From Acidimicrobiia bacterium (GTDB lineage: Bacteria; Actinomycetota; Acidimicrobiia; Spongiisociales; ZC4RG35): DNA of 64,000 nucleotides. The notes beneath the pieces are model-generated. The model searched no databases, was not told where the DNA came from, and worked only from the letters and a program-made list of their open reading frames with translations. Each line of letters begins with the position of its first letter. Within the stretch, counting starts at the first letter, position 1. The stretch is taken from NCBI GenBank assembly GCA_046484325.1, contig JAWOJB010000024.1:26008-90007 (forward strand), written 5' to 3'. This document shows positions 28,066-54,196 of the stretch, piece after piece. A program made the translations under genes and the position numbers.

Positions 28066-29088
28066 TCAGATCGACCGGCCGACCGCCGCCGCCACCGCTC
28101 GCACCCGCTTCACCAGATCGGCGAACTCGGACGGCAACAGCGCCTGGGCGCCGTCGACCAGCGCCGTGTCGGGCGTGGGATGGACGTCGACCATGATGCC
28201 GTCGGCTCCGGCCGCCGCCGCTGCCAGGGCGAGCGGAGCGACCAGCTCACGCCGGCCCCCGGAGTGGGACGGGTCGACGAGCACCGGCAGGTGGGCGAGC
28301 TCCTTCAGGAGGGGGACCGCGGTGATGTCGAGGGTGTTGCGGGCCGCCGTCTCGAAGGTGCGGATGCCCCGCTCGACCAGGATCACGTGGTGGTTCCCCT
28401 CCTTGTACACGTACTCGGCGGCGTTGAGCCACTCCTCCAGCGTCGCCGTGAACCCGCGCTTGAGCTGGACGGGCTTGGGCTGGCGGCCGACCTCCTGGAG
28501 GAGGGTGAAGTTGGCCATGTTGCGGGTACCCACCCGGAGGATGTCGGCGTACGAGGCGACCAGCTCGACGTGGCGGGGGTCGAGCACCTCGGCCACGAAC
28601 GGGATGTCGAACGTCTCCCGGGCCTCGGCCAGCAGGCGGAGGCCCTCCTCGCCCAGACCCTGGAACGAGTAAGGGGAGGTGCGTGGCTTGAAGGCGTCGC
28701 CGCGCAGCACGGTGGCTCCCGCGGCCTTCACCGCCTCGGCGGTCCGGAAGAGCTGCTCGCGGCTCTCGACGGCACACGGCCCGGCGACGAAGGTGAATCC
28801 CCCGCCGCCGATGCGGGTGTTGCGCACGTCGATGACCGTGTCGACGGGTTGGAAATCGCGACTGACGAACTTGAAGGGCTTCAGCACCGGCACGGCCTTC
28901 TCGACGCCGGGCAACGCCTCCCACGGGATCTGCTGGATCCGCTCGCGGTCGCCTATGGCCCCGACGACCGTCTGGAACTGACCGGTCGACACGTGGGCTT
29001 CGCACCCGATGGAGCGCAGGCGCTCGACCACCGACTCGATGTCCTCGGCGGTGGCATCTGGACGCAGGACGATGATCATGGCGCTCAT
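28066..29088 (-). CDS. DAHP synthase type I-beta with N-terminal ferredoxin-like regulatory domain (Thermotoga AroG type)
   Basis: Start MSAMIIVLRPDATAEDIESVV at 29086-29088. The FL domain (KPFKFVSRDF) is followed by FVAGPCAVES and VDPSHSGG core. Confidence 0.85.
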   Translation of the reverse strand: MSAMIIVLRPDATAEDIESVVERLRSIGCEAHVSTGQFQTVVGAIGDRERIQQIPWEALPGVEKAVPVLKPFKFVSRDFQPVDTVIDVRNTRIGGGGFTFVAGPCAVESREQLFRTAEAVKAAGATVLRGDAFKPRTSPYSFQGLGEEGLRLLAEARETFDIPFVAEVLDPRHVELVASYADILRVGTRNMANFTLLQEVGRQPKPVQLKRGFTATLEEWLNAAEYVYKEGNHHVILVERGIRTFETAARNTLDITAVPLLKELAHLPVLVDPSHSGGRRELVAPLALAAAAAGADGIMVDVHPTPDTALVDGAQALLPSEFADLVKRVRAVAAAVGRSI

Positions 29089-29145
29089 CCTCGGGACCCC
29101 TGGAGCCGGCATGTTACGCCTGGTCCGGGGGCCGAATCTCCGCGC

Positions 29146-29174
29146 TTGCAATTGCTAGCGTTTTGCTGTAGCTT
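29146..29174 (+). promoter_or_regulatory. sigma70-like promoter with extended -10 driving a leaderless transcript
   Basis: TTGCAA (29146-29151), 17-nt spacer, TG-TAGCTT (29167-29174). Predicted TSS about 29181, the GTG start at 29182. Palindromes CAATTG and GCTAGC inside the promoter. Confidence 0.45.
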
Positions 29175-29181
29175 GTGGCTA

Positions 29182-29571
29182 GTGAGCGAAGGCAAGCACT
29201 CGGAGGTCGGCGAGTTCATCCGGCAGCAGCGGGAGCGAGCGGACCTCTCGTTGCGGAGGCTCGCCGAGCGGGCGGGGATCTCGAATCCCTACCTGAGCCA
29301 GATCGAGCGGGGAATCCGCAAGCCCTCGGCGGAGATCCTCATGCGGATCTCGCGGGCCCTCGAGATCTCCGCCGAGACGTTGTACAGCCGGGCGGGCCTC
29401 ATGGATGGTTCGCCGGTGTCGGTCTCGGTACTGGAGGCCGTCGAGGCCGACGAGCGCCTGACCTCACGACAGAAGACGGTCCTGCTGGAGCTCTATCGGA
29501 CGCTCGTCGAGGCGAGCGGACCGGTCGGGAGCCGGTCGACGGACGAAGCATCGACGAGAGACGAGGAGTGA
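29182..29571 (+). CDS. XRE-family helix-turn-helix transcriptional regulator
   Basis: LSLRRLAERAGISNPYLSQIERGIRKPSAEIL HTH_3 motif. GTG start, likely leaderless. Confidence 0.75.
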   Translation: MSEGKHSEVGEFIRQQRERADLSLRRLAERAGISNPYLSQIERGIRKPSAEILMRISRALEISAETLYSRAGLMDGSPVSVSVLEAVEADERLTSRQKTVLLELYRTLVEASGPVGSRSTDEASTRDEE

Positions 29572-29573
29572 TC

Positions 29574-30113
29574 ATGGAGGCGAAGACCTACCTCTATGCC
29601 GCCGTTGGGGCCCCGGTCGTGGCCGGCCGGGCCGTTCAGGGAACGTTCGAGTCCCTGCGCCAGAAGCTGACCGAGAACCGGGTGACCCTCACCAAGGAGA
29701 CGAAGGATCTCGTCGCCGAGTGGGCCGTCGAAGGCGAGAAGGCCCTCGACCGTCTCGGCGAGGGCAAGATGGTCGACGAGCTCACCGCCAAGGTGGACTT
29801 CGACCAGATGCAGGAGCAGGTGGGCAAGCTGCGCGACCAGCTCGAGGACATGCTCGAGACCTGGCGCACCAACTTCCGCCCTGCAGAGCGCGCCGAGGGC
29901 ATGATGCGCAAGGCCGCCGGAAAGATGGAGGAGGCCGCCGAGAAGGTGGAGGAGGCCGCTGAGAAGGTGGCCAAGCCGGCCGCCGCTGCCGCCAAGAAGC
30001 CGGCTGCCAAGAAGCCGGCTGCCAAGAAGCCGGCTGCCAAGAAGCCGGCGGCGACCACGGCGAAGAAGCCCGCCGCTCCGAAGCCCGCGCCGGAGGCCAC
30101 CAAGGCGTCCTGA
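29574..30113 (+). CDS. HbhA-like (heparin-binding hemagglutinin family) coiled-coil protein with C-terminal Lys/Ala/Pro repeats
   Basis: ATG overlaps the regulator stop. N-terminal amphipathic helices, C-terminal AKKPAAKKPAAKKPAAKKPAA. Confidence 0.65.
   Translation: MEAKTYLYAAVGAPVVAGRAVQGTFESLRQKLTENRVTLTKETKDLVAEWAVEGEKALDRLGEGKMVDELTAKVDFDQMQEQVGKLRDQLEDMLETWRTNFRPAERAEGMMRKAAGKMEEAAEKVEEAAEKVAKPAAAAAKKPAAKKPAAKKPAAKKPAATTAKKPAAPKPAPEATKAS
29991..30050 (+). repeat. 4 x 15-bp perfect tandem repeat (gccaagaagccggct) encoding AKKPA units
   Basis: Direct tandem copies inside the HbhA-like CDS. Confidence 0.85.
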
Positions 30114-30116
30114 CCC

Positions 30117-30155
30117 CCCCTCGACACGCGAAATGGGGACCCCGACCCGGGGTCC
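30117..30155. terminator. bidirectional hairpin terminator (18-bp perfect stem, 3-nt loop)
   Basis: cgcgaaatggggaccccg-acc-cggggtccccatttcgcg lies between convergent genes ending at 30113 (+) and 30172 (-). Confidence 0.6.
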
Positions 30156-30171
30156 CCATTTCGCGTTCGGC

Positions 30172-30576
30172 TCACCGCCGTACGATCGGATCCACCTCGC
30201 CGGCGTGTTCGATCCACGCGGCGACCATCGCCGTCGTCGGAAGCCGCCGGACGAGGCGGCGCTCCTCGTTGATCTCCGACAATCTCGTCGTGAGCGCCTG
30301 GGGGCTGCGGCGACGGAGGTCGCGGGCGGTCGTCGCCCCCGCCGCCATCAACAGCGCGGCGTATTCGCCACCCACCCCCTTCACCCGCATGAGGTCGGCG
30401 GCCAGGGCCCAGCCGAGAAGGTGGTCGGGATCGATGCCGGCGTGGTTGGCCAGCTCCGCCCGGTCCTTCTTCACCGCCGTCCGGCGGAGGAGGCCCTCGG
30501 TGCTCCGCACCCCCTGCTTGCGCAGCTTGGTGGCACTCTTCGGGGGCATTCCCACGATGGCGGAGATGGACGGCAT
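30172..30576 (-). CDS. DUF4332 (helix-hairpin-helix) domain protein
   Basis: MPSISAIVGMPPKSATKLRKQGVRSTEGLL... Confidence 0.6.
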   Translation of the reverse strand: MPSISAIVGMPPKSATKLRKQGVRSTEGLLRRTAVKKDRAELANHAGIDPDHLLGWALAADLMRVKGVGGEYAALLMAAGATTARDLRRRSPQALTTRLSEINEERRLVRRLPTTAMVAAWIEHAGEVDPIVRR

Positions 30577-30633
30577 GGGTGCGGCTCCTTCCGGCGGACG
30601 GGGAGGGGCGAGCCTAGCCAGGTCGATGGGGGC

Positions 30634-31227
30634 TCACCCCGGTCGCCGGGGCCGCAACTCGGCGACGTCGGCCTGGGTGTCGACGTCGCGGGGTGCCAGC
30701 CGTTCGACCCACACCTCCTCCACCCACTCGGGATGGGCCTGGAGGAGTCGTCCGGCGCCCTCGTCTCCCTCGAGCGACATGAGGCGCGGCCAGAGCCGGC
30801 GGTCGAGCAGCACCGGGTTTCCCCACGAGTAGCGGTATTTGGGGACCACGGCCCGGGCATGCGAGCGGGCGTGTGCCGCCACGAGCGCGGCGACGACGCC
30901 GGGGTCGACGTCCGGTTGGTCCCCGAGCACGATGAGTGCGGCGTCGGCTCGTGAGAGGCGGGTGAGGGCATCGAGGCCCACCCTGATCGATGAGGCGAGG
31001 CCGTCCTGCCACTCGGGGTTCTCGATGAGGCCACAATCGGCGAGGTCGGCGTCGGACCTCACCCGGTCGGCGTCGGCTCCTATGACCACCCAGATCTCGT
31101 CGACCGGGAACCTGCGTGTGCGCTGCACCACGTGGCCGAGCAGCGTGCGTCCTCCCCATGGCTCGAGCTGCTTGGGCCGTCCCAACCGGCGCGAGCCTCC
31201 GGCGGCGAGGACGAGTGCGGCGATCAT
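30634..31227 (-). CDS. mocA: MobA-like NTP transferase / molybdenum cofactor cytidylyltransferase
   Basis: [22 protein letters not shown]-terminus. ORF 30634..32046 upstream of the ATG at 31225-31227 is junk. Confidence 0.75.
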   Translation of the reverse strand: MIAALVLAAGGSRRLGRPKQLEPWGGRTLLGHVVQRTRRFPVDEIWVVIGADADRVRSDADLADCGLIENPEWQDGLASSIRVGLDALTRLSRADAALIVLGDQPDVDPGVVAALVAAHARSHARAVVPKYRYSWGNPVLLDRRLWPRLMSLEGDEGAGRLLQAHPEWVEEVWVERLAPRDVDTQADVAELRPRRPG

Positions 31228-32296
31228 CGTCTGCCGAGTCTCCGCACCTCGCCCTGCAGAACGGGCGGCCGGCGGTGGCCGTACCGCGCCTCGGTCATCT
31301 CCGCCAGGATCGCCACCGCCACCTCGCCGGGCGTGACGGCTCCGATGTCGAGACCGATCGGCCCGTGGATCCGCTCGACCTCGGAGGGCTGATGCCCGGC
31401 GGCCAGCAGCCGCTCGCGACGGCGGGCTGCCGTCGCCGTGCTGCCCATGGCGCCCAGGTACCGGACGGGCCGGCCCAGCACCAATGGCCACAGCGGGTCC
31501 TCGAACCGGGCATCGTGGCTCAGCACCACGACGAACGCCCGGTGATCGAACGTGAGGCGGTCGGCGATCTGGTCGGGCCAGCCGACCAGCAGCTCGGCGG
31601 CGTCGGGAAACCGGGCCTCGGTGGCGAAGGCCGCCCGGCTGTCCGAGACGGTCACCCGGTAGCCGAGATGGGTGGCGAGGGTCGTGAGCGACTGGGCGAT
31701 GTGGACCGCCCCGAAGACGAACAGCCGGGGAGGCGGCGCCAGCGTCTCGACGTAGATCTCGTGGAGCCCGTAGGCGAGCGTCTCGTCGCGCTCCCGGTCC
31801 ATGAGGGCGAGGGCGTCGGCCACGACGTCGGAAGCCACCTCGGAGGGCAGCGAGCCGGCCAGGATGGTGCCGGAGAGATCGACGACCGCCGACGCCCCGA
31901 CGGCCGGCCCTCCGACCGCCGTGAGCCTGGCACCGAGTCGCTCGGCGGCGAGCAGTCCACGGCAGGCCTCGAGAACCGCCGGTGTCACCAGGGCTCCACG
32001 AAGACCTGGATCGTGCCCCCACAGGCCAGGCCCACCTCGAATGCATCCTCGTCGGCGATGCCGTAGGTGACGAGGATGGGCTCGCCGGACTCGATGACCC
32101 GCAGTGCGTGGAGCACCACGTCGTTCTCGACGCAGCCGCCCGACACCGACCCCTCCATGTCCCCGTCCGAGGAGACGACGAGCTTGGATCCGACCGGCCG
32201 AGGGGCCGACCCCGAGACCCGCACGACCGTGGCCACCGCCACCCGCTTGCCGGCCTCTGCCCACCGATCGCGTACGTCGAGCTCCGATCGCATCAT
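31224..32296 (-). CDS. xdhC: XdhC/CoxF-family Mo-hydroxylase maturation factor, split into two frames at 31985-31988
   Basis: N-terminal XdhC_CoxI domain [25 protein letters not shown]...GGCVE..FVEPW-stop (31985..32296). The Rossmann part continues in the +1 frame from GTG 31986 (VTPAVLE...[14 protein letters not shown]...). Junction is GTGA. Confidence 0.6.
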
Positions 32297-33420
32297 CTCC
32301 TCCGTTCCGGGACCGACTCGAGCATCGCCACCAGCGTCGCCAGATCGTCGAAGGTCCCCGCCGCCAGGAAGTCGTCGACGTGCGGGAGGGCGGCGACCAT
32401 GCCCCTCGTCTCGGGAGCGTACCCGGGCCTCCCTGCCAGCGGGTTGAGCCAGATCACCCGGTGGACGGAGCGGCGAAGCCTGCCCATCTCGTCGGCGAGC
32501 ACCTGGGGCTCGCCGCGATCCCATCCGTCGGAGACGATGAGCACGATCGGCCCGCCCCGGGTCATCCGCCGGCTCCACTCGTGGTTGAAGGCTCGCAGGC
32601 ACTCACCGATGCGCGTGCCGCCCGACCAGTCGTGCACGGCGCCGGCCACCTCCCGGAGTGCGTCGGATGGCTCGCGTCGGGCCAGCTCACGGGTCACCCG
32701 GGTCAGCCGGGTCGAGAAGACGAAGCTCTCGAGCCGTCCCAGGCGGCTGCGGGCGGCGTGGGCGAAGTACAGCAGCATCTCGGAGTACCGCTCCATCGAG
32801 CCGGAGACGTCGGCGATGAAGATCAGCGGCCGGGTCCGGGACCGGCGCTCGGTGGTGGCCAGGCTGAGCACGTCGCCGCTCGGGCCCACACTGCGCCGGA
32901 GGGTGCGCCGGAGGTCGGGGCGGTCCCCGGCCCGGGCGGTTCGGCGGCGGCGGCTCGTGGCGGCGGCCGGGCGCCACAGCATTCGGGCGATCATCGATCG
33001 CACCTCGGCCGCCTCCGCCGGCGTGAGCTCGGCGAAGTCCTTCCGTGCGAGGCGCTCGGCCCACGAGGCCCCGGTGACGGCAACCTGGTCGTCGAGCCCT
33101 GCATCCCCGTCCCCTTCGCCACCCTCGGCCGAGGCCTGGATCGACCATGTCCGCGGGCGGGATGCCGCCACCACCACGGCAGGGCCGTCGGCGTCCCCCC
33201 CGAAGAACTCGCGGAACACCCGATCGAAGACCGGGATCTGCTCGCGGTGGGTGACGACGAGCGAGCGGAATGCGTGGTACACGTCCCCCCCGGAGGCGAG
33301 GCCGACGACCTCGCACGCGGTGGCGAGATCGGCGGCGGTGGTCGGGACGACCGGAATCCCCTCGCTCCGCAGGGCGCGCGAGAACTCGACGAGCGTGGAG
33401 GCGCGTTCCACGCCCGGCAC
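32293..33420 (-). CDS. coxE: VWA domain protein, CoxE family
   Basis: MIDAS DVSGSM. Conserved CoxE N-terminus [23 protein letters not shown]. Confidence 0.85.
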
Positions 33421-33435
33421 CCTATCGGAGCGCCC

Positions 33436-34533
33436 TCAGAGCGGGAAGCGGAGGATGCCGACCACGCCGTGCGGGTCGACCGGGGTGGCGATCTCGAGCT
33501 GATCGACCGCCCCGCCGCCGGCCACGACGGCCTCCATCAGGTAGCCGATCACGTCCTCGACCTCGAAGACGGCGCTCCCGCACACCGCGCACTCCCGACC
33601 CGTGCGGGCCAGCCACCCACACTCGCCGCAGACGACGCCGGGCTTCTCGACGCGTCCGGCGACGAGGAGCCGGTCGACCGCCCTGGCGTTGGCGGCCTCG
33701 AGCAGCGTGGCGGTGCCGGCCGCCCCGGATCCGGTCTCGACGGCCGCGGCCGCGGCCTCGGCGGCTTCCTCCTGACGGGCAGCCCACACCGTGGCGGCGT
33801 GATCGGCCACCCGGCGTCGGAGCTCCGGCAGGGTGAGCGTGTGGGGGTCGACCACCACCCGCCCCACGGGGAGGGCCTGGAGGTACGCGTGAAGGTGGGG
33901 GACGAGCTCGTCGAGCGTCTCCTGGTGACCGCCCAGCAGGAGCGCATCGAAGGGCCGGTCCCGGTGGGTCTCGAGCAGTCGGGCCGCTGCCTCCTTCAGC
34001 ATGCGGGCGGTCTCGTGCTCGGCCCGCCGTCGCACACCGTGCTCTTCGTAGCCCGAGAAGCCCCCGAAGTTCGACTTGCCGATGTCGGCCTCGAGTGCCG
34101 CGCCCAGCGGCTCGACCGTTCCGTCGTCTGCGAGGTAGATCCGGCAACGGCGGCGATCGGCGACGACGATGCCCATGTGGAGCGGACGGGGTCGGGAGCG
34201 CAGCGGGCGGAGATAGGCCCGGGGCCCGATCGAGCCGTGATCCCAGACCAGATGGTCCAGGAAGGACATCTCATGGATGTCGTCGGTCGACGACATGAAC
34301 AGGGCCACGCCGTTCGCGGGCTGGGCATCGATCTTCGGCACGAGGCCCTGGATGCGCTCGCAGTCGCGCAGCACGGCCTTGGCGATGCCCCGCTCCATGC
34401 TGTCGGCGGCGGCGCGGATCGGCTTCAGCAAGTCGGTGATGGCCGCCGAGGCGCTTCCGGCAGGGCGATCGAGATACAGCGAGATGAGCGATCCCGACGG
34501 CGAGCGGAGCTCGGCGAGCGAGGTGAGGTCCAT
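33436..34533 (-). CDS. eRF1/Pelota-like (bacterial-archaeal release-factor-like, Vms1-type) protein with C-terminal zinc ribbon
   Basis: Three-domain layout. NFGGFSG loop in place of GGQ, CGECGW...CAVCGS zinc ribbon, and eRF1 domain-3-like end GVVGILRF. Confidence 0.55.
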   Translation of the reverse strand: MDLTSLAELRSPSGSLISLYLDRPAGSASAAITDLLKPIRAAADSMERGIAKAVLRDCERIQGLVPKIDAQPANGVALFMSSTDDIHEMSFLDHLVWDHGSIGPRAYLRPLRSRPRPLHMGIVVADRRRCRIYLADDGTVEPLGAALEADIGKSNFGGFSGYEEHGVRRRAEHETARMLKEAAARLLETHRDRPFDALLLGGHQETLDELVPHLHAYLQALPVGRVVVDPHTLTLPELRRRVADHAATVWAARQEEAAEAAAAAVETGSGAAGTATLLEAANARAVDRLLVAGRVEKPGVVCGECGWLARTGRECAVCGSAVFEVEDVIGYLMEAVVAGGGAVDQLEIATPVDPHGVVGILRFPL

Positions 34534-34689
34534 GGATCCTCCCCGGAGAACGGTGGTCGGACGGACGAGGTCGACCCGACGGATGGAGGTCCGCGAGGAG
34601 GCGCCGCTCGTCTCACAGGCATGCGAAACGCCCCGGCATCTGAACCGAGCGTACCTCGGCGCGGGCCCTCGTGCCCCGGTCGAGCGGCC

Positions 34690-35571
34690 CTATCCGGGGG
34701 CGGCAGCGTCGATCCCGCGCCGCCGCACCCGCTCCACGTCCTCGCGGTACTTCAGCACCACGCCGAGCGTGTCGTCGATCAGCGCCGGGTCGAGCTCGCG
34801 GGCGCCGAGCACCCGCAGCGCGTGCGCCCAGTCGATGGTCTCGGCAACCCCCGGGGGTTTGAACAGGTCCAGGGAGCGGAGGTCGCCCATGGCGGCGGCG
34901 AGCTGGCGGGCGAGGCGCTCGTCGACGTCGGGTACCTTGGCCCGGATGATCGACACCTCGCGGTCGAAATCGGGATAGTCCACCCAGTGGTAGATGCACC
35001 GGCGCTTGAGGGCGTCGTGGATCTCACGGGTCCGATTGCTGGTGATGATCACGACCGGCGGCACGGCGGCGGTGATCGTGCCGATCTCGGGGATCGTGAC
35101 CTGGAAGTCCGACAACAGCTCGAGCAGGAATGCCTCGAACTCCTCGTCGGCCCGGTCGAGCTCGTCGATCAGGAGCACGGGCCGCTTCCCGACGGCCGCC
35201 GACTCGACGGCATGGAGCAGGGGCCTGGCGAGCAGGTAGTCGCGGCTCATGATGTCGGCCACCTCGGCCTGGCCGCCCTCTCCCCGGGCCTCGATGAGCC
35301 GGATCGCCAGCATCTGGCGGGCATAGTCCCACTCGTAGAGGGCGTGTCCGACGTCGAGGCCCTCGTAGCACTGGAGCCGGATGAGCTCGGTATCGAGCAT
35401 GTCGGCGAGGACCTTCGCCACCTCGGTCTTCCCGACCCCCGCCTCTCCCTCCAGGAAGAGCGGACGCCCCAGCCGAAGGGCGAGGTGGACGCTCACGGCC
35501 AGGCTCCGATCGGCCACGTAGTCGCGCTCGGCGAAGGCCTCGGCGATCGCTTCGACCGTGTCGGGGACCAT
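34690..35571 (-). CDS. coxD: MoxR-family AAA+ ATPase (CoxD-like)
   Basis: Walker A GEAGVGKTE, Walker B LLIDELDRA, arginine finger region. Confidence 0.85.
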   Translation of the reverse strand: MVPDTVEAIAEAFAERDYVADRSLAVSVHLALRLGRPLFLEGEAGVGKTEVAKVLADMLDTELIRLQCYEGLDVGHALYEWDYARQMLAIRLIEARGEGGQAEVADIMSRDYLLARPLLHAVESAAVGKRPVLLIDELDRADEEFEAFLLELLSDFQVTIPEIGTITAAVPPVVIITSNRTREIHDALKRRCIYHWVDYPDFDREVSIIRAKVPDVDERLARQLAAAMGDLRSLDLFKPPGVAETIDWAHALRVLGARELDPALIDDTLGVVLKYREDVERVRRRGIDAAAPG

Positions 35572-35630
35572 CTGGGCACCATAGCCAGCACCGGATCGAC
35601 GTTGGATGGCGGCGTGACCACAATGGAGGC

Positions 35631-35966
35631 GTGTTCAGACCCGACATCCCCGAGGCACCCTCGGTCTCGCCCGAGGAGGCGAAGGCCCTGGTGGAGGAGG
35701 GTGCCCTACTCGTCGACATCCGTGAGGTCGAGGAGTGGCAGGCGGCTCGCATCCCGGGAGCCGAGTTCAAGCCGCTCTCGACGATCAACGACTGGTGGCC
35801 CGACCTCCCGCTGGATCGAACCGTCGTCCTCTACTGCCGGTCGGGGAACCGCTCGGCTCACGCCGTGAACGCCCTCGTGGGTCAGGCGGGGCGGACCAAC
35901 GTGCTCAACCTCACGGGGGGCATCATCGCCTGGGACCGGGCCGGTCTGCCGGTGGAGGATGCCTAG
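35631..35966 (+). CDS. single-domain rhodanese-like sulfurtransferase
   Basis: Active-site loop YCRSGNRS. Confidence 0.75.
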   Translation: MFRPDIPEAPSVSPEEAKALVEEGALLVDIREVEEWQAARIPGAEFKPLSTINDWWPDLPLDRTVVLYCRSGNRSAHAVNALVGQAGRTNVLNLTGGIIAWDRAGLPVEDA

Positions 35967-36348
35967 CGCCCTCGAGCTCGCCGTAGCCGATCACCTGGCC
36001 GGCGTCGGCCGGAGACTGGCGGCCGGGCGCCTCCGACGGCGTAGCTGGAGGACCATGCTCCCGGTGGCGCTCGACCCGGTGGAGGCCGGGCTGGCGACGG
36101 TGGGGGGAGGGCTGCTGGGCCTGGCGGCCGGAGTCGGGTTGGGCGTCTCCGGCCCGCTCTCGCTCGTGCTGGCGGTCGTGGCGGCGCTGGCGGCCCTGGT
36201 CGGCGTGGCGTCGATGTCGGTGGTGGAGGCGGCCGACCGGGCGGTTCGCAGGCTCGAGGCGCACCTGTCGATGCCCGAACTGCTCGATGCCGTCGAAGGG
36301 CTCGGCCCGGTCGAGGTGACGGCGCTCGCCGGCCTCAGGCGGACCTGA
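35959..36348 (+). CDS. hypothetical membrane protein
   Basis: ATG overlaps the rhodanese stop. Gly/Ala/Leu-rich TM segments. Convergent 14-nt overlap with coxM. Confidence 0.4.
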   Translation: MPSALELAVADHLAGVGRRLAAGRLRRRSWRTMLPVALDPVEAGLATVGGGLLGLAAGVGLGVSGPLSLVLAVVAALAALVGVASMSVVEAADRAVRRLEAHLSMPELLDAVEGLGPVEVTALAGLRRT

Positions 36349-37182
36349 TCGCCTCCGTCAACGCCCGCCTCGTCATCACCTTGGCCAGGTGGGACTTGTA
36401 CTCCTCGGACCCGTAGAGGTCCTCGAGCACCGTGAGCCCCTCCAGCGCCCGCTCGGCGGCGGCGGCCACGGCGGCGTCGGATCCGTCGGTCCCGATCAGC
36501 GCTTCCGCCACGCCCACGGCGAGAGTGGCCTTGGTGCCCACACCGGTGATCGCCACCCGGCAGTCGCCGATGGAGCCGTTCGAGCGCGACACCCAGGCCG
36601 CCGCTCCTGCGACCGCGTAGTCGGTGTGGCCGCCCCGGCGCCCCAGTTTCTCGTAGGCGGTGGCGCCCGCCCGTCGGGGGATCCGGATCTCGGTGAGGAT
36701 CTCGTCGGGCTCGAGGGCCGACGTGAGGGCGTCGACGAAGAAGTCGTCGGCCGCGATCTCCCGGGTGCCGGCCGGGCCCTGCGCCACCATCGTGGCGCCG
36801 AGTGCCAGGATGGCGGCCGGCTGGTCGGCTGCGATGTCGGCGTGGGCCACCGAGCCGCAGGTGGTGCCCCGATTCCTGATCTGGGCGTCCCCGGTGTAGG
36901 CGGCGGCGCTCCGCAGCGCGTCCGGCACGAGCCCGGACTCGGCCGTCTGGCGATGGCGGACGAGGGCTCCCAGCGACACGTGGTCGCCTCCGTCCTCGAT
37001 CCGGTCGAGCCCGGGGATCCGCCCGATGTCGACCAGCAGTTCGGGGGAGAACAGGCGCATCTTCATGAGCGGCAGCAGGCTCATCCCGCCCGCCAGCACC
37101 TTCGCCGAGTCGGCGCCCGCCAGGGCGGACACCGCCTCGTCGAGGGTGGCCGGGGCGACGTAGTCGAACGGTCGGGGGTACA

Positions 37183-37183
<1 letters not shown>
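36335..37183 (-). CDS. coxM: Mo-hydroxylase FAD-binding medium subunit (CoxM/XdhB-like)
   Basis: Start MYPRPFDYVAPATLDEAV with GGGAGG-type RBS. FAD-binding domain and CO-dehydrogenase flavoprotein C-terminal domain. Confidence 0.85.
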
Positions 37184-39563
<2,380 letters not shown>

Positions 39564-39567
<4 letters not shown>

Positions 39568-40061
39568 GCCCGCACCCCCTCGGTCTCCCACTCCGCCGGC
39601 GGGGGCGTCTCACCCCGCATCCTGGCGGCCGCGTACTCGATGGCCTTCACGATGTTGTGGTAGCCGGTGCACCGGCAGAGGTTGCCTTCGATGCCGTGGC
39701 GGATCTCGGCCTCGGTCGGGCTCGGGTTCTCCTGGAGAAGGCCGACCGCCTGGATGATCATGCCCGGGGTGCAGAACCCACACTGGAGACCGTGCCGCTC
39801 CCAGAAGCCCTCCTGCACCGGGTGCAACTCGCCGTCGGCGGTGAGTCCCTCGATCGTGGTCACGTCTGAGCCCTCGGCCTGACCGACGAGCACCATGCAC
39901 GACTTGACGGTGGCCCCGTCGATCAGAACGGTGCACGCGCCGCAGTACCCGCTCTCGCAGCCGACGTGGGTCCCGGTGAGGCCGAGCTCGTCCCGCAGGA
40001 GGTGGACGAGGAGCGTCCGCGGTTCCACGGCGACCGCCACCTGCCTGCCGTTGACGGTCAT
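39564..40061 (-). CDS. coxS: Mo-hydroxylase [2Fe-2S] small subunit (CoxS)
   Basis: [11 protein letters not shown] and [14 protein letters not shown] cluster motifs. Start MTVNGRQV. Confidence 0.9.
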
Positions 40062-40218
40062 GGACACCTGCAAGCGAGCCTCCTTCGATGACCGCCGCCG
40101 ACGCTATCACCGGCGGTCGCGACGCGTCGCCGAGACGGGGAGGTTTGGAGGAGACCCGGCTTCCCCGGGCACCGGGCCCTCGAGGTTGGCAGAATGCGGT
40201 GGGTCAGGAGGTCGAGGC

Positions 40219-40419
40219 ATGGCGGGGTCTGGCGGTGGCGGAGTGGCGGCCTTCTTCGTCGCGCTGGCGGTCGTGGCGGCCGGCGGCGGTTGGTTGATCT
40301 CCCTCCTGACCGGATGGAACGTGCTCCTGGTCGGCGTCGTCGTGTTCGTCCTCGGACTGGCGGTCGTGGTGCCTCTGCGGATCCTGTCGGCGGCGGACCG
40401 CCGGAGCGGAGAGCTCTAG
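40219..40419 (+). CDS. small two-TM membrane protein (66 aa)
   Basis: AGGAGG 7 nt upstream of ATG 40219. MAGSGGGGVAAFFVALAVVAAGGGWLISLL... Confidence 0.45.
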   Translation: MAGSGGGGVAAFFVALAVVAAGGGWLISLLTGWNVLLVGVVVFVLGLAVVVPLRILSAADRRSGEL

Positions 40420-41603
40420 GCGCCAACGGCGCCGGCTCGGGTGAACCGAGCCACGATCTCGACGTGATACGTCTGGGGGAAGAGGTCCAGCGGCTGCACC
40501 CACTCGAGCACGAACCCGGCGGTCACCAGGCGCCGGGCGTCGCGGGCGAAGGTGGCGGGGTCGCAGGACACCATCGCCAGCCACCGCACACCGGCCGCCG
40601 CCAGGCACTCGGGGACCCCGGGCCCCAGGCCCGCCCGAGGTGGGTCGACCACCGCAGCCTCGAACCGTCCCAGGCCGGCGACGGCCTCCTCCAGGCGGCG
40701 CCCCACCACAGTCACCCGCCCATCGGTGTTGTGGCCGAGGTCGTCCACGGCCCGCCGGTCCGACTCCACCGCGGTCACGGCCCCGAACCGGCGGCCAACG
40801 GTGGCGGCGAACAGGCCGACCCCGGCATACCCGTCGAGCAGGACTCCCTCGGCGCCGGCCAGCGCCAGGTCGACATGGTGGACGAGGCGTCTGGCGCCCG
40901 GGGTCGAGACCTGGAAGAAGGCCCGCCCGCCGATGCGGAAGCGCACGCCCGCCACCTCCTCGTGGATGCGGGCGGCGGCGGGGGCCCGGACCGGGATCCC
41001 CCACCGGTCCGAGGCATCCGCCGGAGGGTCGCCGTCGACGATCGCGACCGTCTCCCCCGAGGCCACGCCGGCCCGCAGCGTGAGACGGCGCAGCCCGGCG
41101 AGACCGTCGAGCCGCCGGATCACCCGCTGGAGCGGCTCGACCGGCAGCAGGCACAGGTCGAGCTCGACCAGGTCGTGGGAGCGGGCGGCCGCCAGGGCCG
41201 GCCGCCCTCCCGACACGCGCAGGTCCATGCGGTTGCGGTAGCCGAACGCGGGGGAGGCCGGGTCGATCGGACGGACCTCGGCATCGTGGATGTCGCCGAG
41301 GTGGGCGAGTTGGGAGCGAACGGTGCGCTGCTTCCAGCGCAGCTGGGCCGGATGCCCCGCCGCCTGCCAGGGACAGCCCCCACAGCCGTCGGCGAGGTGC
41401 GGGCAGGGCGGTTCGATCCGGTCCGGCGACGGGTCGAGCAGCTCGATCACCCGCCCTCTGGCGAACCGGGGCCGCTCCTCGGTGATCTCGACTCGGACCA
41501 GGTCCCCGGGCATCGCCCCGGGGACGAACACGGCGAGGCCATCGTGGCGTCCGAGACCGTCTCCCCCGTGGGCCATCTCCTCGACCCGGAGCGGGATGGT
41601 CAC
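40416..41603 (-). CDS. 23S rRNA (uracil-C5)-methyltransferase RlmD/RumA family
   Basis: TRAM domain, CPHLADGCGGCPWQ Fe-S motif, SAM methyltransferase fold. Confidence 0.8.
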   Translation of the reverse strand: MTIPLRVEEMAHGGDGLGRHDGLAVFVPGAMPGDLVRVEITEERPRFARGRVIELLDPSPDRIEPPCPHLADGCGGCPWQAAGHPAQLRWKQRTVRSQLAHLGDIHDAEVRPIDPASPAFGYRNRMDLRVSGGRPALAAARSHDLVELDLCLLPVEPLQRVIRRLDGLAGLRRLTLRAGVASGETVAIVDGDPPADASDRWGIPVRAPAAARIHEEVAGVRFRIGGRAFFQVSTPGARRLVHHVDLALAGAEGVLLDGYAGVGLFAATVGRRFGAVTAVESDRRAVDDLGHNTDGRVTVVGRRLEEAVAGLGRFEAAVVDPPRAGLGPGVPECLAAAGVRWLAMVSCDPATFARDARRLVTAGFVLEWVQPLDLFPQTYHVEIVARFTRAGAVGA

Positions 41604-42052
41604 GAGAGGGCCCGGATGAGGAGCGCCTGGAGGGAGGCGAGGTAGTCGAGGATGGCGTGGTCGCCTTCGTCGAGCCGTTCGTAGTCCGCCGCCACGTCGA
41701 CCCGGAGGCGGGCCGCCAGCACGAGGCGGGCCTCCACCAGCACCCGGAGGAAGGCCTCGGCCTCGGCAGGCGACGCCGTCACACCGTCCTCGGCCCCGGC
41801 GACCAACTCGCCGAACGCCGAGCGGTCGGCCGACCGGGACTCGTCGAGCTCGGACCGCATGAGCCGCCAGTACTCGGCGTCGGACCCGGGGTCGTCGAGG
41901 TAGACGGGGACCGTGAGCCGGCCGGCCGCCGGGTCGCCCGGCTCGGCTCCGACCCCGCCGAGCATCGCCGGGATCTGGGAGAGGATGGCCACGTCGGCCC
42001 GATCGAGTCGGACCTCGATCCCCTGGCGGGTGCGGCGGAACGGGCCCATCAT
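41600..42052 (-). CDS. DUF2017 domain protein (ClpS-associated)
   Basis: Start [17 protein letters not shown] at 42050-42052. The upstream 72 codons of ORF 41600..42268 are Arg-rich junk. 4-nt overlap with clpS. Confidence 0.65.
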
Positions 42053-42336
42053 CGTTCGAGGGTCGCCCACAGACCGTGCCGGTGGAGGCGGTAGCAGTCG
42101 AGTTCGGACTGCTCGCGGGGCCCGTCGGCCACCACCGCCCGTCCCTCGTGGTGGACTTGCATGGTCAGCTCCATGGCCTTGTGCTCGGAGTATCCGAAGA
42201 GCTTGCGGAAGACGTACGCGACGTACTCGATGAGGTTGACCGGGTCGTCCCACACGATGACCTTCCACGTCTCGTCGAGGCCCTGCGACTCGTCGACGTC
42301 GGGCTCGATGGTCGGTGCCAGTTCGGCGCGTTCCAC
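42049..42336 (-). CDS. clpS: ATP-dependent Clp protease adaptor ClpS
   Basis: [45 protein letters not shown]. Confidence 0.9.
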
Positions 42337-42402
42337 CCCGTCAGGCTAGGCGCCAACGACCCCCTCGACGGCCGGCGCCCCGGGCCGTAGCGTGCGAGAC
42401 GG

Positions 42403-42699
42403 ATGCACGACGATCCTCCCCACCCCGACGTCGAGGAGATCGCCGAGGCCCTGGAGCGCCGCCTCGGCGAGGTCCTGCGACTCGAGCAGGAGGCAGCCGC
42501 CGTGGAGGCTCGCAGGGTCACCACCATCCGCGATCGCCTGCTGGACGCCGAGGACGGGGCCGATCCGGTGGTCGTGTGGTTGCGCTCGGGCTCGTCGTGG
42601 CGGGGTGTGCCGCTCGTGGGACTCGATCACGTCGAGGTCTGCGGGGGACGGCGGGTGCTCGTGGCCCTCGACGAGATCGAGGCCGTCGAACTGGCATGA
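42403..42699 (+). CDS. hypothetical protein
   Basis: 98-aa ORF with GC3-rich codon usage. Stop overlaps the next ATG. Confidence 0.35.
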   Translation: MHDDPPHPDVEEIAEALERRLGEVLRLEQEAAAVEARRVTTIRDRLLDAEDGADPVVVWLRSGSSWRGVPLVGLDHVEVCGGRRVLVALDEIEAVELA

Positions 42700-43712
42700 G
42701 GACGGCGGTGGCGACGATCGTGACCGCCGCCTTGTGGGAGCAGGAGCTCGTGGCGGCCGCCCGGCGGACCGGGAGGGTGCGGATCGTCGCCCGCTGCGCC
42801 GATCCGGTGGCGGCCGGCGCGGCGGCAGGGCGGGTCGGGGCGATCGTGGTCGGATCGGCCACCCCGTGGCTCTCGGCCGGGGCCGTCGACGGCTGGCGGC
42901 GGGCCGGTGCGCTGGTGGTGGGGGTGGTCGAGTCGGGAGACCGAGCGGCCCACGGCCGACTCCAGCGGCTCGGGTGCGACATCGTTGCGGAGGACGAACC
43001 CGAGATGCTGCTGGACTCGATCGCCCTCATCGGGTCGTCGTCCACCGGCCGCCCGGACCCCTGGCACGTGGTGACGGGCCCACGGGGTGCCCCCGGCCGG
43101 ACCGAGGTGGCGCTCGGCCTGGCCCTGGCGCTCGAGCCGCCCGTGTTGCTCGTCGAGGCCGACCGGGCGGCTCCGTCGCTGGGGCTCCGCCTCGGCCTCC
43201 CACCCGAGCGCTCCCGCCCGCAAGCCCGCCGGTGGGGTCCGATCGGTGTCGTGACGGTATCGCCCGGCACCACCCTCGCCGAGCTCGACGAGATCGCCGC
43301 AGCCTGGGACGGTCGGGTGGTCGTCGACGCCGGACCCGAGCCCGGTCAGGCGAGGCGCCGGAGCCCCGCCCGGACCGTCGTGGTCGCGACCGCCACGCCG
43401 GTGGGGATGGTACGAGCGGCCGCCTTCCTGGCCGGGGTGGCCGACCTCCGTCCACGCCTGGTGCTCAACCGTTGCCGGCCCGGTGACGCGGCGGTGGTCG
43501 CGGCGGTGCTCGGGCCACCGGACGCCATCATCCCCGAGCTGGCGGCCGGGTGGGGTGCGCCCCCCGACACCCGACTGGTGGATGCGTTGCGAGAGTCGCC
43601 CATCGTCAGCGGGCCACCGAGCGGTAGCTACCGAGGAAGCGCAGATCGGCGAGGGTGGCCGGAGGGGGCTCGAACACGGCCGCCAGGCCGGCTCTCCCCG
43701 GGGGGTGGGTGA
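42696..43712 (+). CDS. CpaE/ParA-like (helicase/secretion-neighbourhood type) protein with N-terminal receiver-like domain
   Basis: MRTAVATIV start overlaps the previous stop. LLVEADRAAPSLGLRLGL and VVVATATPVGMVRAA resemble degenerate ParA/CpaE ATPases. 3' end uncertain (about 106-nt convergent overlap with pheA). Confidence 0.45.
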   Translation: MRTAVATIVTAALWEQELVAAARRTGRVRIVARCADPVAAGAAAGRVGAIVVGSATPWLSAGAVDGWRRAGALVVGVVESGDRAAHGRLQRLGCDIVAEDEPEMLLDSIALIGSSSTGRPDPWHVVTGPRGAPGRTEVALGLALALEPPVLLVEADRAAPSLGLRLGLPPERSRPQARRWGPIGVVTVSPGTTLAELDEIAAAWDGRVVVDAGPEPGQARRRSPARTVVVATATPVGMVRAAAFLAGVADLRPRLVLNRCRPGDAAVVAAVLGPPDAIIPELAAGWGAPPDTRLVDALRESPIVSGPPSGSYRGSADRRGWPEGARTRPPGRLSPGGG

Positions 43713-51952: not shown

Positions 51953-54196
51953 TCAAGAGCCTGTGGCGTCCTCCGGGAAGCCGTCGCGGAGCATCATGGC
52001 GACGTCCCGGACCACCACGTCGTCGCGGCCGAGCTCCTTGACCCCGTCGTCGATCATCACGTAGCAGTAGGGGCACGAGACGGCGATCTCGTCGGCGCCG
52101 GTGGCCAGTGCCTCCTGGGCCCGCTCGATGTTCACCTTCTTTCCGGTGTGCTCCTCCATCCAGAACCGGGACCCGCCGGCCCCGCAGCAGAGGCCGCGGG
52201 TGCCGTGCCGGGGCATCTCGACCATCTCGACGTTGCCCGTGGCCGCGACCACCTCTCGCGGCGCCAGGTAGATGTCGTTGTGGCGGCCCAGGTAGCACGG
52301 GTCGTGGTAGGTGACCGTGCGACGTGGCGACGACCCGTTCGAGGCGGACCGTAGGCGGTCCTGGCGCAGCAGCTCGGCGAGCAGCTCGGTGTGGTGGACG
52401 ACCTCGTAGTCGCCGCCCATCTGCGGGTACTCGTTGGCCAGGGTGTTGAAGCAGTGGGGACACTGGGTGATGACCTTCTTCACGCCCAGCTCATCGAAGG
52501 TCGCGATGTTCTGGAGGGCGAGCTGCTGCCAGACGTACTCGTTGCCGGCCCGCCGGGCCGGGTCGCCGTTGCAGCTCTCCCGGGGCCCCAGGATGGCGAA
52601 GTCGATGCCGGCCTCGTGGAGGAGCTTGGCGAGGGCGATCGTCACCGCCTGGTTGCGGTCGTCGAAGCTCCCGGCGCAGCCCACGTACCAGAGGTACTCG
52701 GCCGAGTCGACGCCGGGGTCGCCGAGGATCCTCACCTCGAAGTCGAGCTTCTTCGTCCAGTCGGCCCGGCTCTGCTGTGAGAGGCCCCACGGGTTGCCCT
52801 GGTTCTCCATGGCGACGAAGGCCTTGCCGAGCTCGGGCGGGAAGTCCGACTCCATCAGGGTCAGGTACCTCCGCATGTCGAGGATCTTGTCGAGGATCTC
52901 GATGTTCACCGGGCAGATGTCGTCGCAGGCCTTGCACGAGGTGCACGACCAGACCTCCTCGGACTGGATCCGCTCGAAGAGGCGGTCCGACTCGATGACG
53001 ATGCCCTCGGCCAGCGACACCTGGGCCGACACGGCGGGGACGCCGCTGGCGGCCATCACCTCGCCGGTCTTCAGCACGATCTCGCGGGGGTCGAGCGGCT
53101 TGCCGGTGAGGTTGGCCGGGCACACCGAGGTGCAGCGGCCACAGATTGTGCAGGCGTCGGTGTCGAACAGCTGCTTCCAGGTGAGGTCGGAGATCACCGA
53201 GGCCCCGATGGTCTCGATGTCCTCGACCTCCATCAGGTTGGGCATCTCGCGCATGGCCCCCTTGGGGCGCTCGTTCGGCGAGAGGAACATGTTGGCGGGC
53301 GAGGTGAACATGTGCCTGAGCTTGGTGGTGGGAAGCATGACGAGGAACGCCAGGAAGGCGCCGGCATGGACGACCCAGGACACCTGGTGGACCGTCGACG
53401 CCGCCGCGTCCGGGACCAGGAACGACATCGGATAGCCGACGAACGACCAGACCTCGAAGTCCGGACGCCCCATCCACGCGATGCGGGCGGCCTCGGTGGT
53501 GAAACCCGTCACGCCGACCAAGGCGAGCATTCCGAGGATCCAGGCATCCTCGGGCTTCGTCTTGGATCGCAGCCGCCACGGACGCTGGAGATACCGGCGG
53601 GCGAACGCCCAGCCGAGGCCGGCCAGGAACACCAGCCCGGCGAGATCGAGGACGAGCGAGTACCCGAGGTAGACGTTCCCTTGCAGGAACTTGAGCGAGG
53701 TGGGGGCGAGGTTGTCGATCTCGAGCGTCACCGTGCCGATGAAGAGCACGATGAACCCGTAGTAGACCATGGCGTGCATCAGCCCGGCCTGGCGATCGCG
53801 CATCAAGGTCTTCATGCGCAGGCCGCGGTCGAGCTGTCGGAGCCGCTCGCCCCAGCTCCCCGTGCGGCGATCGGAGCCGCCGCGCTGCCAGTTCCTGGCA
53901 CGCAGGGCGAAGAGGTAGAAGGCGACGGCGAGGAAGGCTGCGCTGGCGACGTAGAACGCGGCCTTGATCGGCTCGGTGATGTTGCCGAAGACTTCGCGAC
54001 CGATCTCGGGGACGAAGGGGCCCGACAGCCCCCCCAGCCACCAGAGGGCCAGCGTCCCTCCGGCCGACAGCACCGCCAGAACCATGAGGACCTGCGATGC
54101 GGTGATGCGACGCCGAGGGGAGGGGGACGAGTCGGTCCCGGTCGAGTGCTCGGTGGTGGTCGCCATGGTGGGGGTCAGGCTAGATCCTCCCACCAT
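51953..54196 (-). CDS. membrane-bound (Fe-S) oxidoreductase: NarI-like cytochrome b TM domain fused to HdrD/GlpC-like 4Fe-4S dicluster and two CCG domains
   Basis: N-terminal multi-TM. CTICGRCTSVCP and CTSCKACDDICP ferredoxin motifs. C-terminal cysteine-rich CCG motifs (QCPHC..., HDPCYLG, LCCGAGG). Confidence 0.75.
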   Translation of the reverse strand: MVGGSSLTPTMATTTEHSTGTDSSPSPRRRITASQVLMVLAVLSAGGTLALWWLGGLSGPFVPEIGREVFGNITEPIKAAFYVASAAFLAVAFYLFALRARNWQRGGSDRRTGSWGERLRQLDRGLRMKTLMRDRQAGLMHAMVYYGFIVLFIGTVTLEIDNLAPTSLKFLQGNVYLGYSLVLDLAGLVFLAGLGWAFARRYLQRPWRLRSKTKPEDAWILGMLALVGVTGFTTEAARIAWMGRPDFEVWSFVGYPMSFLVPDAAASTVHQVSWVVHAGAFLAFLVMLPTTKLRHMFTSPANMFLSPNERPKGAMREMPNLMEVEDIETIGASVISDLTWKQLFDTDACTICGRCTSVCPANLTGKPLDPREIVLKTGEVMAASGVPAVSAQVSLAEGIVIESDRLFERIQSEEVWSCTSCKACDDICPVNIEILDKILDMRRYLTLMESDFPPELGKAFVAMENQGNPWGLSQQSRADWTKKLDFEVRILGDPGVDSAEYLWYVGCAGSFDDRNQAVTIALAKLLHEAGIDFAILGPRESCNGDPARRAGNEYVWQQLALQNIATFDELGVKKVITQCPHCFNTLANEYPQMGGDYEVVHHTELLAELLRQDRLRSASNGSSPRRTVTYHDPCYLGRHNDIYLAPREVVAATGNVEMVEMPRHGTRGLCCGAGGSRFWMEEHTGKKVNIERAQEALATGADEIAVSCPYCYVMIDDGVKELGRDDVVVRDVAMMLRDGFPEDATGS

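Follow-up and report, generated by a model that had tools for sequence, protein, structure and literature searches.

Balon hibernation factors, described by Helena-Bueno et al. (2024, PMC10901736), block translation and bind the ribosomal A site together with EF-Tu, and A-site binding with inhibition of translation has been described for Balon homologs that include Rv2629 and MSMEG_1130 (PMC10901736). The broad clade of bacterial aeRF1-like proteins, baeRF-1, was named by Burroughs and Aravind (2019, PMC6514570). Its published gene neighborhood theme is HPF/YfiA, arginines after the catalytic-type loop are one of its features, and family 10 is singled out as a baeRF-1 family able to retain a catalytic Gln (PMC6514570). 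In Oligotropha carboxidovorans, coxD, coxE and coxF are contiguous within the cluster coxBCMSLDEFGHIK (PMC4240915). We analyzed a 64-kb stretch of DNA from an Acidimicrobiia bacterium (contig JAWOJB010000024.1; 64,000 nucleotides, hereafter the window) in which the gene for a 365-amino-acid (aa) protein, here called baeRF, lies between homologs of coxD and coxE. An earlier note on this DNA had reported a release-factor-fold gene in this place, and both the open reading frames (ORFs) and their Pfam and NCBIfam matches bear it out. The explanation that we favor, and consider fairly probable, is that the product of baeRF is a ribosome factor that occupies the A site without catalysis, that baeRF is the first gene of an operon of its own, shared with genes for molybdenum cofactor (Moco) maturation, and that operon history accounts for the place of baeRF between coxD and coxE.

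The locus resembles that of O. carboxidovorans in having genes for a MoxR-type CoxD, a von Willebrand factor A (VWA) CoxE and an XdhC-type CoxF homolog near coxSLM. It differs in that baeRF and a promoter-like element part coxD from coxE, a rhodanese gene of opposite orientation stands between coxSLM and coxD, and CoxL is of form II. The molybdenum hydroxylase setting proposed in the earlier note also stands, with coxS, coxL and coxM upstream and xdhC, a MocA-like gene and a DUF4332 gene downstream. The neighbors of Balon are RaiA, Hsp20, Osm or RtcB, whereas those of baeRF are Moco maturation genes; in contrast to published baeRF-1 loci, the orthogroup described here appears to head an operon with mocA-like and DUF4332 genes. 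The order coxD / baeRF-coxE-xdhC-mocA-DUF4332 is unmentioned in PMC6514570, PMC10901736 and PMC4240915.

The 365-aa protein belongs to the bacterial aeRF1 clade

In Pfam, the protein scored above the gathering cutoff for baeRF_family12 (31.6 bits against 27.7) and just under it for baeRF_family10 (27.0 against 27.1); baeRF_family3 and Host_attach also matched below their cutoffs. Nearly all of its homologs are already annotated as PF18854 (baeRF_family10). The NCBIfam model aRF1_eRF1 (TIGR03676) matched with E=9e-10 and 37.9 bits, under its cutoff of 234.7. In a profile search of the PDB, the top match was the Balon protein MSMEG_1130 (E=3.3e-16, residues 10-365 aligned to 18-375), followed by the archaeal aRF1 4af1 (E=4e-10). 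An exhaustive profile search collected 5040 cluster representatives with E<=1e-3, of which 893 reached E<=1e-30.

The AlphaFold2 (AF2) model of baeRF is of high confidence (mean predicted local distance difference test [pLDDT] 91.4, predicted template modeling score [pTM] 0.82). Compared by Foldseek, it was closest to Mycobacterium smegmatis Balon (template modeling [TM] score 0.77-0.79; 8v9l_z, 0.79) and Psychrobacter urativorans Balon (0.73). Next came aRF1, eRF1 and Pelota. The probability was 1.00 for all four, Balon included; the whole-chain TM scores of aRF1 and eRF1 were 0.54 or lower. The earlier note had read an eRF1/Pelota three-domain layout from the letters and had proposed profile and structure searches against eRF1-fold models as a check. 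Those searches confirmed the eRF1 fold, with Balon as the best match, and the structural alignments with Balon, aRF1, eRF1 and Pelota span the whole model. We accordingly place the 365-aa protein in the bacterial aeRF1 clade (baeRF-1, Balon-like). An identical protein from an Acidimicrobiia metagenome-assembled genome (MAG) is recorded in both NCBI, as hypothetical, and JGI, as "peptide subunit release factor 1 (eRF1)".

Conserved motifs at the presumed ribosome-facing sites

Motif conservation was assessed in an alignment of 21 sequences. The loop of the middle domain has at its tip two invariant glycines, G157 and G158, followed by F159, which at least 90% of sequences share; a profile alignment puts this GGF over the GGQ of aRF1 4af1, as the earlier note had it. 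The Gln that follows the two glycines is replaced by Phe or Trp throughout the orthogroup; relatives carry GGF or GGW, and one (P0172) has GGQ. The flanking residues K153, G161 and E164 are conserved around the loop, as are Arg residues in the helix that follows it. With a pLDDT of 56-71, the GGF loop is the sole flexible part of the AF2 model and is probably mobile in the protein.

Conservation extends to the four zinc-ribbon cysteines, C302, C305, C315 and C318, the last of which is present in at least 90% of sequences; both pairs align over the zinc ribbon of 4af1, and the motif is present in most of 179 relatives inspected. The C-terminal ...LRF is likewise conserved, with R362 invariant and F363 nearly so. 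For both motifs the earlier note was right.

In the N domain of Balon, a His-Pro (HP) motif contacts the decoding center (PMC10901736). The corresponding loop of baeRF has Arg-Pro instead: P110 and L111 are invariant, R109 is conserved in at least 90% of sequences, and in the alignment to MSMEG_1130 "lrPL" lies over "IHPL", so that the Pro is kept and the His is absent. The translated N domain contains no NIKS motif. Of the features of a class I release factor, baeRF thus has neither GGQ nor a stop-codon motif, and it scores under the TIGR03676 cutoff.

These features relate baeRF to each of its described relatives. With Balon (P. urativorans; MSMEG_1130 and Rv2629 of mycobacteria; PMC10901736), it shares the three-domain aeRF1 fold over its full length, the lack of GGQ and NIKS, an X-Pro loop at the HP position, and occurrence in bacteria alongside the normal release factors. 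The three-domain layout, the arginines past the loop and a loop without Gln are shared with baeRF-1 (PMC6514570; PF18854, PF18856). With aRF1 and eRF1 it has in common the fold, the position of the loop and the site at which the zinc ribbon is inserted (4af1), but Phe or Trp stands in place of the catalytic Gln and NIKS is missing. Judged by the retained GG pair, aRF1-like loop and zinc ribbon, the subfamily looks more ancestral than Balon.

baeRF keeps its chromosomal position with or without cox genes

Is the position between coxD and coxE a conserved one? We mapped the genes of the window onto 80 species-level orthologous loci, all of them on Acidimicrobiia-like MAG contigs, some with doubtful taxon labels, with flanks of up to 7 kb fetched per locus. 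At 14 of these loci, coxD lies upstream and coxE downstream of baeRF, and the coxD orthologs are 75-82% identical. The remaining 66 keep baeRF and have no coxD or coxE homolog at the locus; there, baeRF stands between clpS-DUF2017 and (xdhC)-mocA-DUF4332. The next downstream gene always begins at -17 to about +100 nt; cox-bearing loci have coxE in this place, the others xdhC or mocA. Where coxE follows, its spacing from baeRF is -13 to +35 nt in 13 of the 14 loci. DUF4332 follows the MocA-like gene and is the last gene of the conserved unit. baeRF is therefore at a fixed chromosomal position, with or without cox genes. The 15-kb neighborhood is itself syntenic across the MAGs (clpS, DUF2017, DAHP synthase, glnE and others).

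Upstream of baeRF, the spacing is looser. The gap from coxD to baeRF measures 1.2-1.4 kb at 6 of the 14 loci that have cox genes, and in the 4 of them where a gene could be called it is filled by an unrelated gene for a secreted peptidase of the Peptidase_M15_4 kind. Several basal lineages, some with cox genes and some without, have such a gene (VanY-like, secreted, about 400 aa) directly before baeRF (L001, 5701-6915; L071, 984-2219; L081, 6791-7972; also L003 and L082). At L003, the peptidase reading frame continues into the baeRF ORF.

Gene trees (neighbor joining, about 360 columns, 200 bootstraps) clarify how the two arrangements are related. The 66 cox-lacking loci are monophyletic with 100% bootstrap support, and they group with one cox-bearing clade, clade C, in 95.5% of bootstraps; cox-bearing loci are monophyletic in only 1%. 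From this pattern we conclude that a single loss removed the cox genes from a large, nested derived clade, which retained baeRF. The root is less firmly placed: only 40% of bootstraps have P0026 in a basal position, and support for the sister relation to the P0051-like group is 8.5%.

Beyond the 80 loci, we inspected nine Pfam-annotated relatives (one basal orthogroup member and eight more distant) and 80 distant metagenome loci, in all about 90 family-10 loci. MoxR or VWA neighbors were found in 0 of the 9 and 0 of the 80. In P0026, which is 38% identical to baeRF and basal in the orthogroup, and in three divergent positional orthologs (P0185, P0192 and P0196; 31-36% identical), the order is baeRF-NTP_transf_3-DUF4332, with no cox genes. 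One family-10 relative lies between RtcA and an HPF-type gene, another in a Usp/GAF-kinase region, and one relative between an IF-2B-family gene and an FGGY sugar-kinase gene; two have no neighbor of obvious relevance. Among the 80 metagenome loci (L092-L171), which represent a distant family-10 subgroup, homologs of coxD, coxE, xdhC, mocA, DUF4332 and HPF were found in none.

Other arrangements were seen among these relatives. At 53 of the 80 distant metagenome loci, baeRF is convergent with an AcrB-like RND efflux pump gene about 80 nt away, with HlyD-like and TolC-like genes beyond; this echoes the multidrug-export neighbors reported for Balon. On a Gemmatimonadales MAG contig (DATLWG010000294.1; L083, 438-1550), a distant family-10 baeRF lies exactly between the genes for the catalytic domain and the B12-binding domain of methylmalonyl-CoA mutase. 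Here, too, a release-factor-fold gene is wedged into a cofactor-enzyme cluster, though in a single instance.

A transcription unit that likely begins after coxD

The gap between coxD and baeRF in the window is 156 nt and contains a conserved promoter-like element. Of the 80 upstream regions examined (L001-L080), 71 contain the pattern GTA[CG]NNT[CGT] at a distance of 28-121 nt from the baeRF start; shuffled controls average 5.6 and reach at most 13. The conserved element is likely baeRF's own promoter, independent of coxD. Downstream of it, the genes of the window are tightly packed: 15 nt separate baeRF from coxE and 28 nt coxE from xdhC, and xdhC and mocA overlap by 4 nt. Given the upstream element and this spacing, the transcription unit likely runs from baeRF through coxE and xdhC, where present, to mocA and DUF4332, and begins after coxD. 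The earlier note had described tightly spaced, co-directional genes, likely one operon, with baeRF inserted among the cox genes. The shared minus strand and the tight downstream spacing stand; the gap after coxD is wider and holds the promoter-like element, and "inserted" is an incomplete description of a gene that has its own upstream element and holds its position even where cox genes are absent. A scan of positions 29500-41000 for consensus promoters and terminators gave one weak plus-strand match and no terminators, and is uninformative at this GC content.

The putative 5' untranslated region (UTR) of baeRF contains CCUCC tracts, resembling the anti-Shine-Dalgarno sequence, and short upstream ORFs. 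We considered whether a hairpin that sequesters the Shine-Dalgarno (SD) sequence, or a leader peptide, might control baeRF. Single-sequence folds pair CCUCC with the GGAGG SD in cox-bearing clades, but the SD is often paired in shuffled sequences too, the pattern is inconsistent in cox-lacking loci, and RNAalifold returned no consensus structure for the 5' UTR. We set this candidate aside as weak. The CCUCC tract, which occurs in the upstream regions of L040, L042, L050, L057, L061, L065, L073 and L079, doubles as the Pro-Pro codons of a short upstream ORF (for example, MTIRICHGRDPPTG...), and at several loci the stop of the upstream ORF overlaps the baeRF start (GTGA). A Moco riboswitch or other RNA family upstream of baeRF was likewise rejected, since Rfam searches were empty both for 29000-43000 by E value and for the whole window by gathering score. 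A tRNA search found none.

A probable A-site factor, weighed against other explanations

On the basis of its family membership and its conserved ribosome-facing features, baeRF probably binds the ribosomal A site in the manner of Balon, without catalyzing peptide release. The N-domain loop YLRPLR, which aligns with the Balon HP motif, would contact the decoding center, the flexible GGF loop and the Arg-rich helix that follows it would sit at the peptidyl-transferase center, and the C-terminal domain with its zinc ribbon would face EF-Tu. The outcome would be ribosomes that are silenced or protected under stress. baeRF would be the first gene of its unit, with cox genes around it in basal lineages, including that of the window, and lost from the derived clade; its position between coxD and coxE would then be a matter of operon history and not of partnership with a MoxR-VWA pair. 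Co-regulation is the most likely meaning of the shared operon: a ribosome-silencing factor and the maturation of molybdoenzymes would be turned on together, for instance in starvation or at low oxygen.

Several observations weigh against this explanation. Identity to Balon proteins is only 14-18%, and the NCBIfam equivalog model for MSMEG_1130 (NF052288) failed, with 16.4 bits (E=0.0034) against a cutoff of 480. The middle domain of Balon has a lasso loop, along with a bL27 trap; in baeRF the loop is of eRF1 length and has an invariant GG (GGF or GGW). In its C-terminal domain, Balon carries a beta-hairpin insert at the site where the CxxC...CxxC zinc ribbon of baeRF is intact. Since the equivalog model failed and these details of loop and insert differ, the protein is better filed under the broad baeRF-1 clade than as Balon proper; to judge from the same residues, the GG pair, the eRF1-length loop and the zinc ribbon could make it behave differently from Balon at the peptidyl-transferase center. 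The gene neighborhood also provides counterarguments. The cox-bearing arrangement is paraphyletic, and hence old within the orthogroup. A MocA-like gene is found downstream of baeRF at all 78 informative loci, and the tie to mocA extends to three divergent positional orthologs with other upstream neighbors. Chance synteny would not be expected to persist to this degree, and the coupling to mocA and coxE might reflect a real functional link with molybdoenzyme maturation.

Perhaps, then, baeRF has been recruited away from the ribosome to handle Moco together with MocA, XdhC and DUF4332? The MocA-like and DUF4332 genes that follow it, in the informative loci and in P0026, P0185, P0192 and P0196 alike, would be expected under this explanation, as would the tight spacing and the placement of xdhC and coxE, when present, between baeRF and mocA. 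Gene order alone is weak evidence, however, in a 15-kb neighborhood that is syntenic across MAGs, and distant members of the family lack Moco neighbors. All of the ribosome-facing parts (the RP loop, the GG loop, the Arg-rich helix and the C-terminal domain) are conserved, and we know of no Moco chemistry on a release-factor fold. We consider this recruitment very unlikely. An active or semi-active rescue factor, whose GG loop enters the peptidyl-transferase center and releases or repositions peptidyl-tRNA on stalled ribosomes, is unlikely as well. The two glycines are invariant, the loop matches that of aRF1 with K153, G161 and E164 conserved beside it, family 10 can retain the catalytic Gln (PMC6514570), and P0172 has GGQ; against these stand the change of Gln to Phe or Trp across the orthogroup, the lack of a NIKS-like stop-codon motif, and the fact that the nearest solved relatives are the non-catalytic Balon proteins.

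The earlier note had proposed something else, namely, a possible new quality-control or maturation step, linked to the ribosome or a tRNA-like substrate, in which the MoxR-VWA remodeling pair is coupled to baeRF. baeRF would then be the working partner or substrate adaptor of CoxD and CoxE in molybdoenzyme maturation. This is what its place between coxD and coxE in the window and 13 other loci would suggest, along with the close spacing to coxE at 13 of 14 loci and the age of the coxD-baeRF-coxE order, which is paraphyletic in the orthogroup. The novelty claimed for the link holds in part: the family descriptions in PMC6514570 and PMC10901736 mention no link to MoxR, vWA, CoxE or molybdenum, but the protein itself is of the known baeRF-1/Balon kind. 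The distribution of the gene pair argues the other way. A conserved linkage to MoxR/VWA genes, whose absence the note itself had named in advance as grounds for giving the idea up, is found at 14 of 80 orthologous loci; the other 66, a nested clade that has lost cox and kept baeRF, and the roughly 90 further family-10 loci are without it. coxD is set apart from baeRF either by 109-156 nt with a promoter-like element or by 1.2-1.4 kb, with a peptidase gene where one could be called. We conclude that a partnership of baeRF with CoxD and CoxE is highly improbable. Nor did PADLOC support a MoxR-vWA conflict or defense system, returning only generic P-loop matches for CoxD and none for the other proteins.

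Of the remaining arguments about the operon, one concerns its significance as a whole. It is possible, though doubtful in our estimate, that the promoter-proximal place of an Acidimicrobiia zinc-ribbon GG(F/W) factor in a Moco operon reflects a real functional coupling, be it a dedicated dormancy program that joins ribosome silencing to molybdoenzyme assembly or recruitment of the fold to cofactor or enzyme maturation. The operon link of baeRF, mocA and DUF4332 is confined to one lineage and lies inside a broadly syntenic region.

With the A-site factor as the favored explanation, the current names "eRF1" and hypothetical protein would be corrected to a Balon-like (baeRF-1 family 10) ribosome factor. 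The GG loop and the zinc ribbon, ancestral features of aRF1, persist in the Balon-type factors of this poorly cultured class of actinobacteria, which would make these proteins useful intermediates for tracing the evolution of hibernation factors from release factors. Molybdenum CO-dehydrogenase-type enzymes are thought to support persistence, and the link to mocA and DUF4332, like the interleaving with coxD and coxE, would carry more weight if a shared dormancy regulon proved true. As regards molybdoenzyme maturation, the evidence speaks against a new accessory factor.

Genes and other features of the window

The features discussed here are collected in Table 1. The window has a GC content of 72%. 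coxD, baeRF and coxE are all on the minus strand, have a GC content at third codon positions of 0.90-0.93, and pass the codon-position GC filter. A 1254-aa ORF on the plus strand (32104-35868), antisense to coxE, baeRF and coxD, failed the same filter and was rejected as a high-GC artifact.

Table 1. Coordinates of genes, motifs and upstream elements in the 64-kb window
Feature	Positions	Strand	Assignment or evidence
baeRF, 365 aa	33436..34533	(-)	Bacterial aeRF1-like, baeRF-1 family 10/12, Balon-like
GGF (G157-G158-F159), tip of middle-domain loop	34057..34065	(-)	GGQ position
Zinc ribbon C302-x2-C305...C315-x2-C318, in C-terminal (Pelota/eRF1_3-like) domain	33580..33630	(-)	Conserved Cys
R109-P110 in N-domain loop GPRxYLRPLR	34204..34209	(-)	Aligned to His-Pro of Balon HP motif
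GTACGCTC, -10-like element	34647..34654	(-)	121 nt before baeRF start, 35 nt past coxD stop
Putative 5' UTR	34534..34646	(-)	CCUCC (anti-SD-like) tracts and short upstream ORFs
coxD-like MoxR AAA+ ATPase	34690..35571	(-)	Pfam AAA_5/AAA
coxE-like VWA protein	32293..33420	(-)	Pfam VWA_CoxE, E=9e-59
xdhC/coxF-like Moco insertion chaperone	31224..32264	(-)	Pfam XdhC_C; NCBIfam XdhC_rel_AOR
MocA-like molybdenum cofactor cytidylyltransferase	30634..31227	(-)	Pfam NTP_transf_3; NCBIfam TIGR03310, E=6e-40, below cutoff
DUF4332 protein, last gene of conserved unit	30172..30576	(-)	Pfam DUF4332, E=5e-35
coxS	39564-40073	(-)	Pfam; carbon monoxide dehydrogenase (CODH)-like Mo hydroxylase structural gene
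coxL	37183-39591	(-)	Pfam; AYRGAGR motif, form II
coxM	36335-37219	(-)	Pfam; CODH-like Mo hydroxylase structural gene
Rhodanese-domain gene	35631..35966	(+)	Pfam Rhodanese; NCBIfam MoeZ/MoeB C-terminal-like

CoxL scored 657.7 bits with TIGR02416 (form I CODH), under the cutoff of 991, and has AYRGAGR where the AYXCSFR loop would be. It scored about equally with the NCBIfam models for CODH and glyceraldehyde dehydrogenase, both below cutoff. We take AYRGAGR to denote form II and AYXCSFR form I, as we understand King and Weber's classification. Given the motif and the sub-cutoff CODH score, the enzyme is best described from its sequence as a CODH-like hydroxylase of form II rather than as a proven CO dehydrogenase. 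Identification of CoxD and CoxE as MadB and MadC was rejected, their NCBIfam matches being far under cutoff and a literature search giving nothing relevant.

The rhodanese gene lies on the opposite strand between coxSLM and coxD, so that coxSLM and coxD are not one transcript. It overlaps a 129-aa ORF with no family match, also between coxM and coxD (35631-36348, plus strand), and the pair is divergent from coxD; L073 and L075 likewise have a rhodanese gene before coxD. The rhodanese protein could plausibly transfer sulfur in Moco sulfuration.

The AF2 model of the DUF4332 protein (pLDDT 94) has a tandem helix-hairpin-helix (HhH) fold. Foldseek against the PDB gave weak matches (E > 0.1) to the HhH modules of NusA, RadA and Hel308, from which no specific function can be deduced, and in the literature the domain came up in one unrelated paper.

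The conserved block is flanked in the window by ClpS (42049-42336), DUF2017 and then an RlmD-like methyltransferase on one side, and by DAHP synthase and prephenate dehydrogenase on the other. Convergent with DUF4332 (29175-30113, plus strand) are genes for an XRE/HTH_3-type regulator with a ClgR-like sequence and for an Ala/Lys/Pro-rich protein with no Pfam match; this pair accompanies the baeRF-mocA-DUF4332 unit in nearly all loci. Positions 51953-54196 on the minus strand encode a 747-aa membrane protein with a NarI-like heme-b domain, 4Fe-4S ferredoxin motifs and two CCG domains (HdrD/DsrK-like), and this protein (cluster 4) is kept upstream of clpS in most loci.

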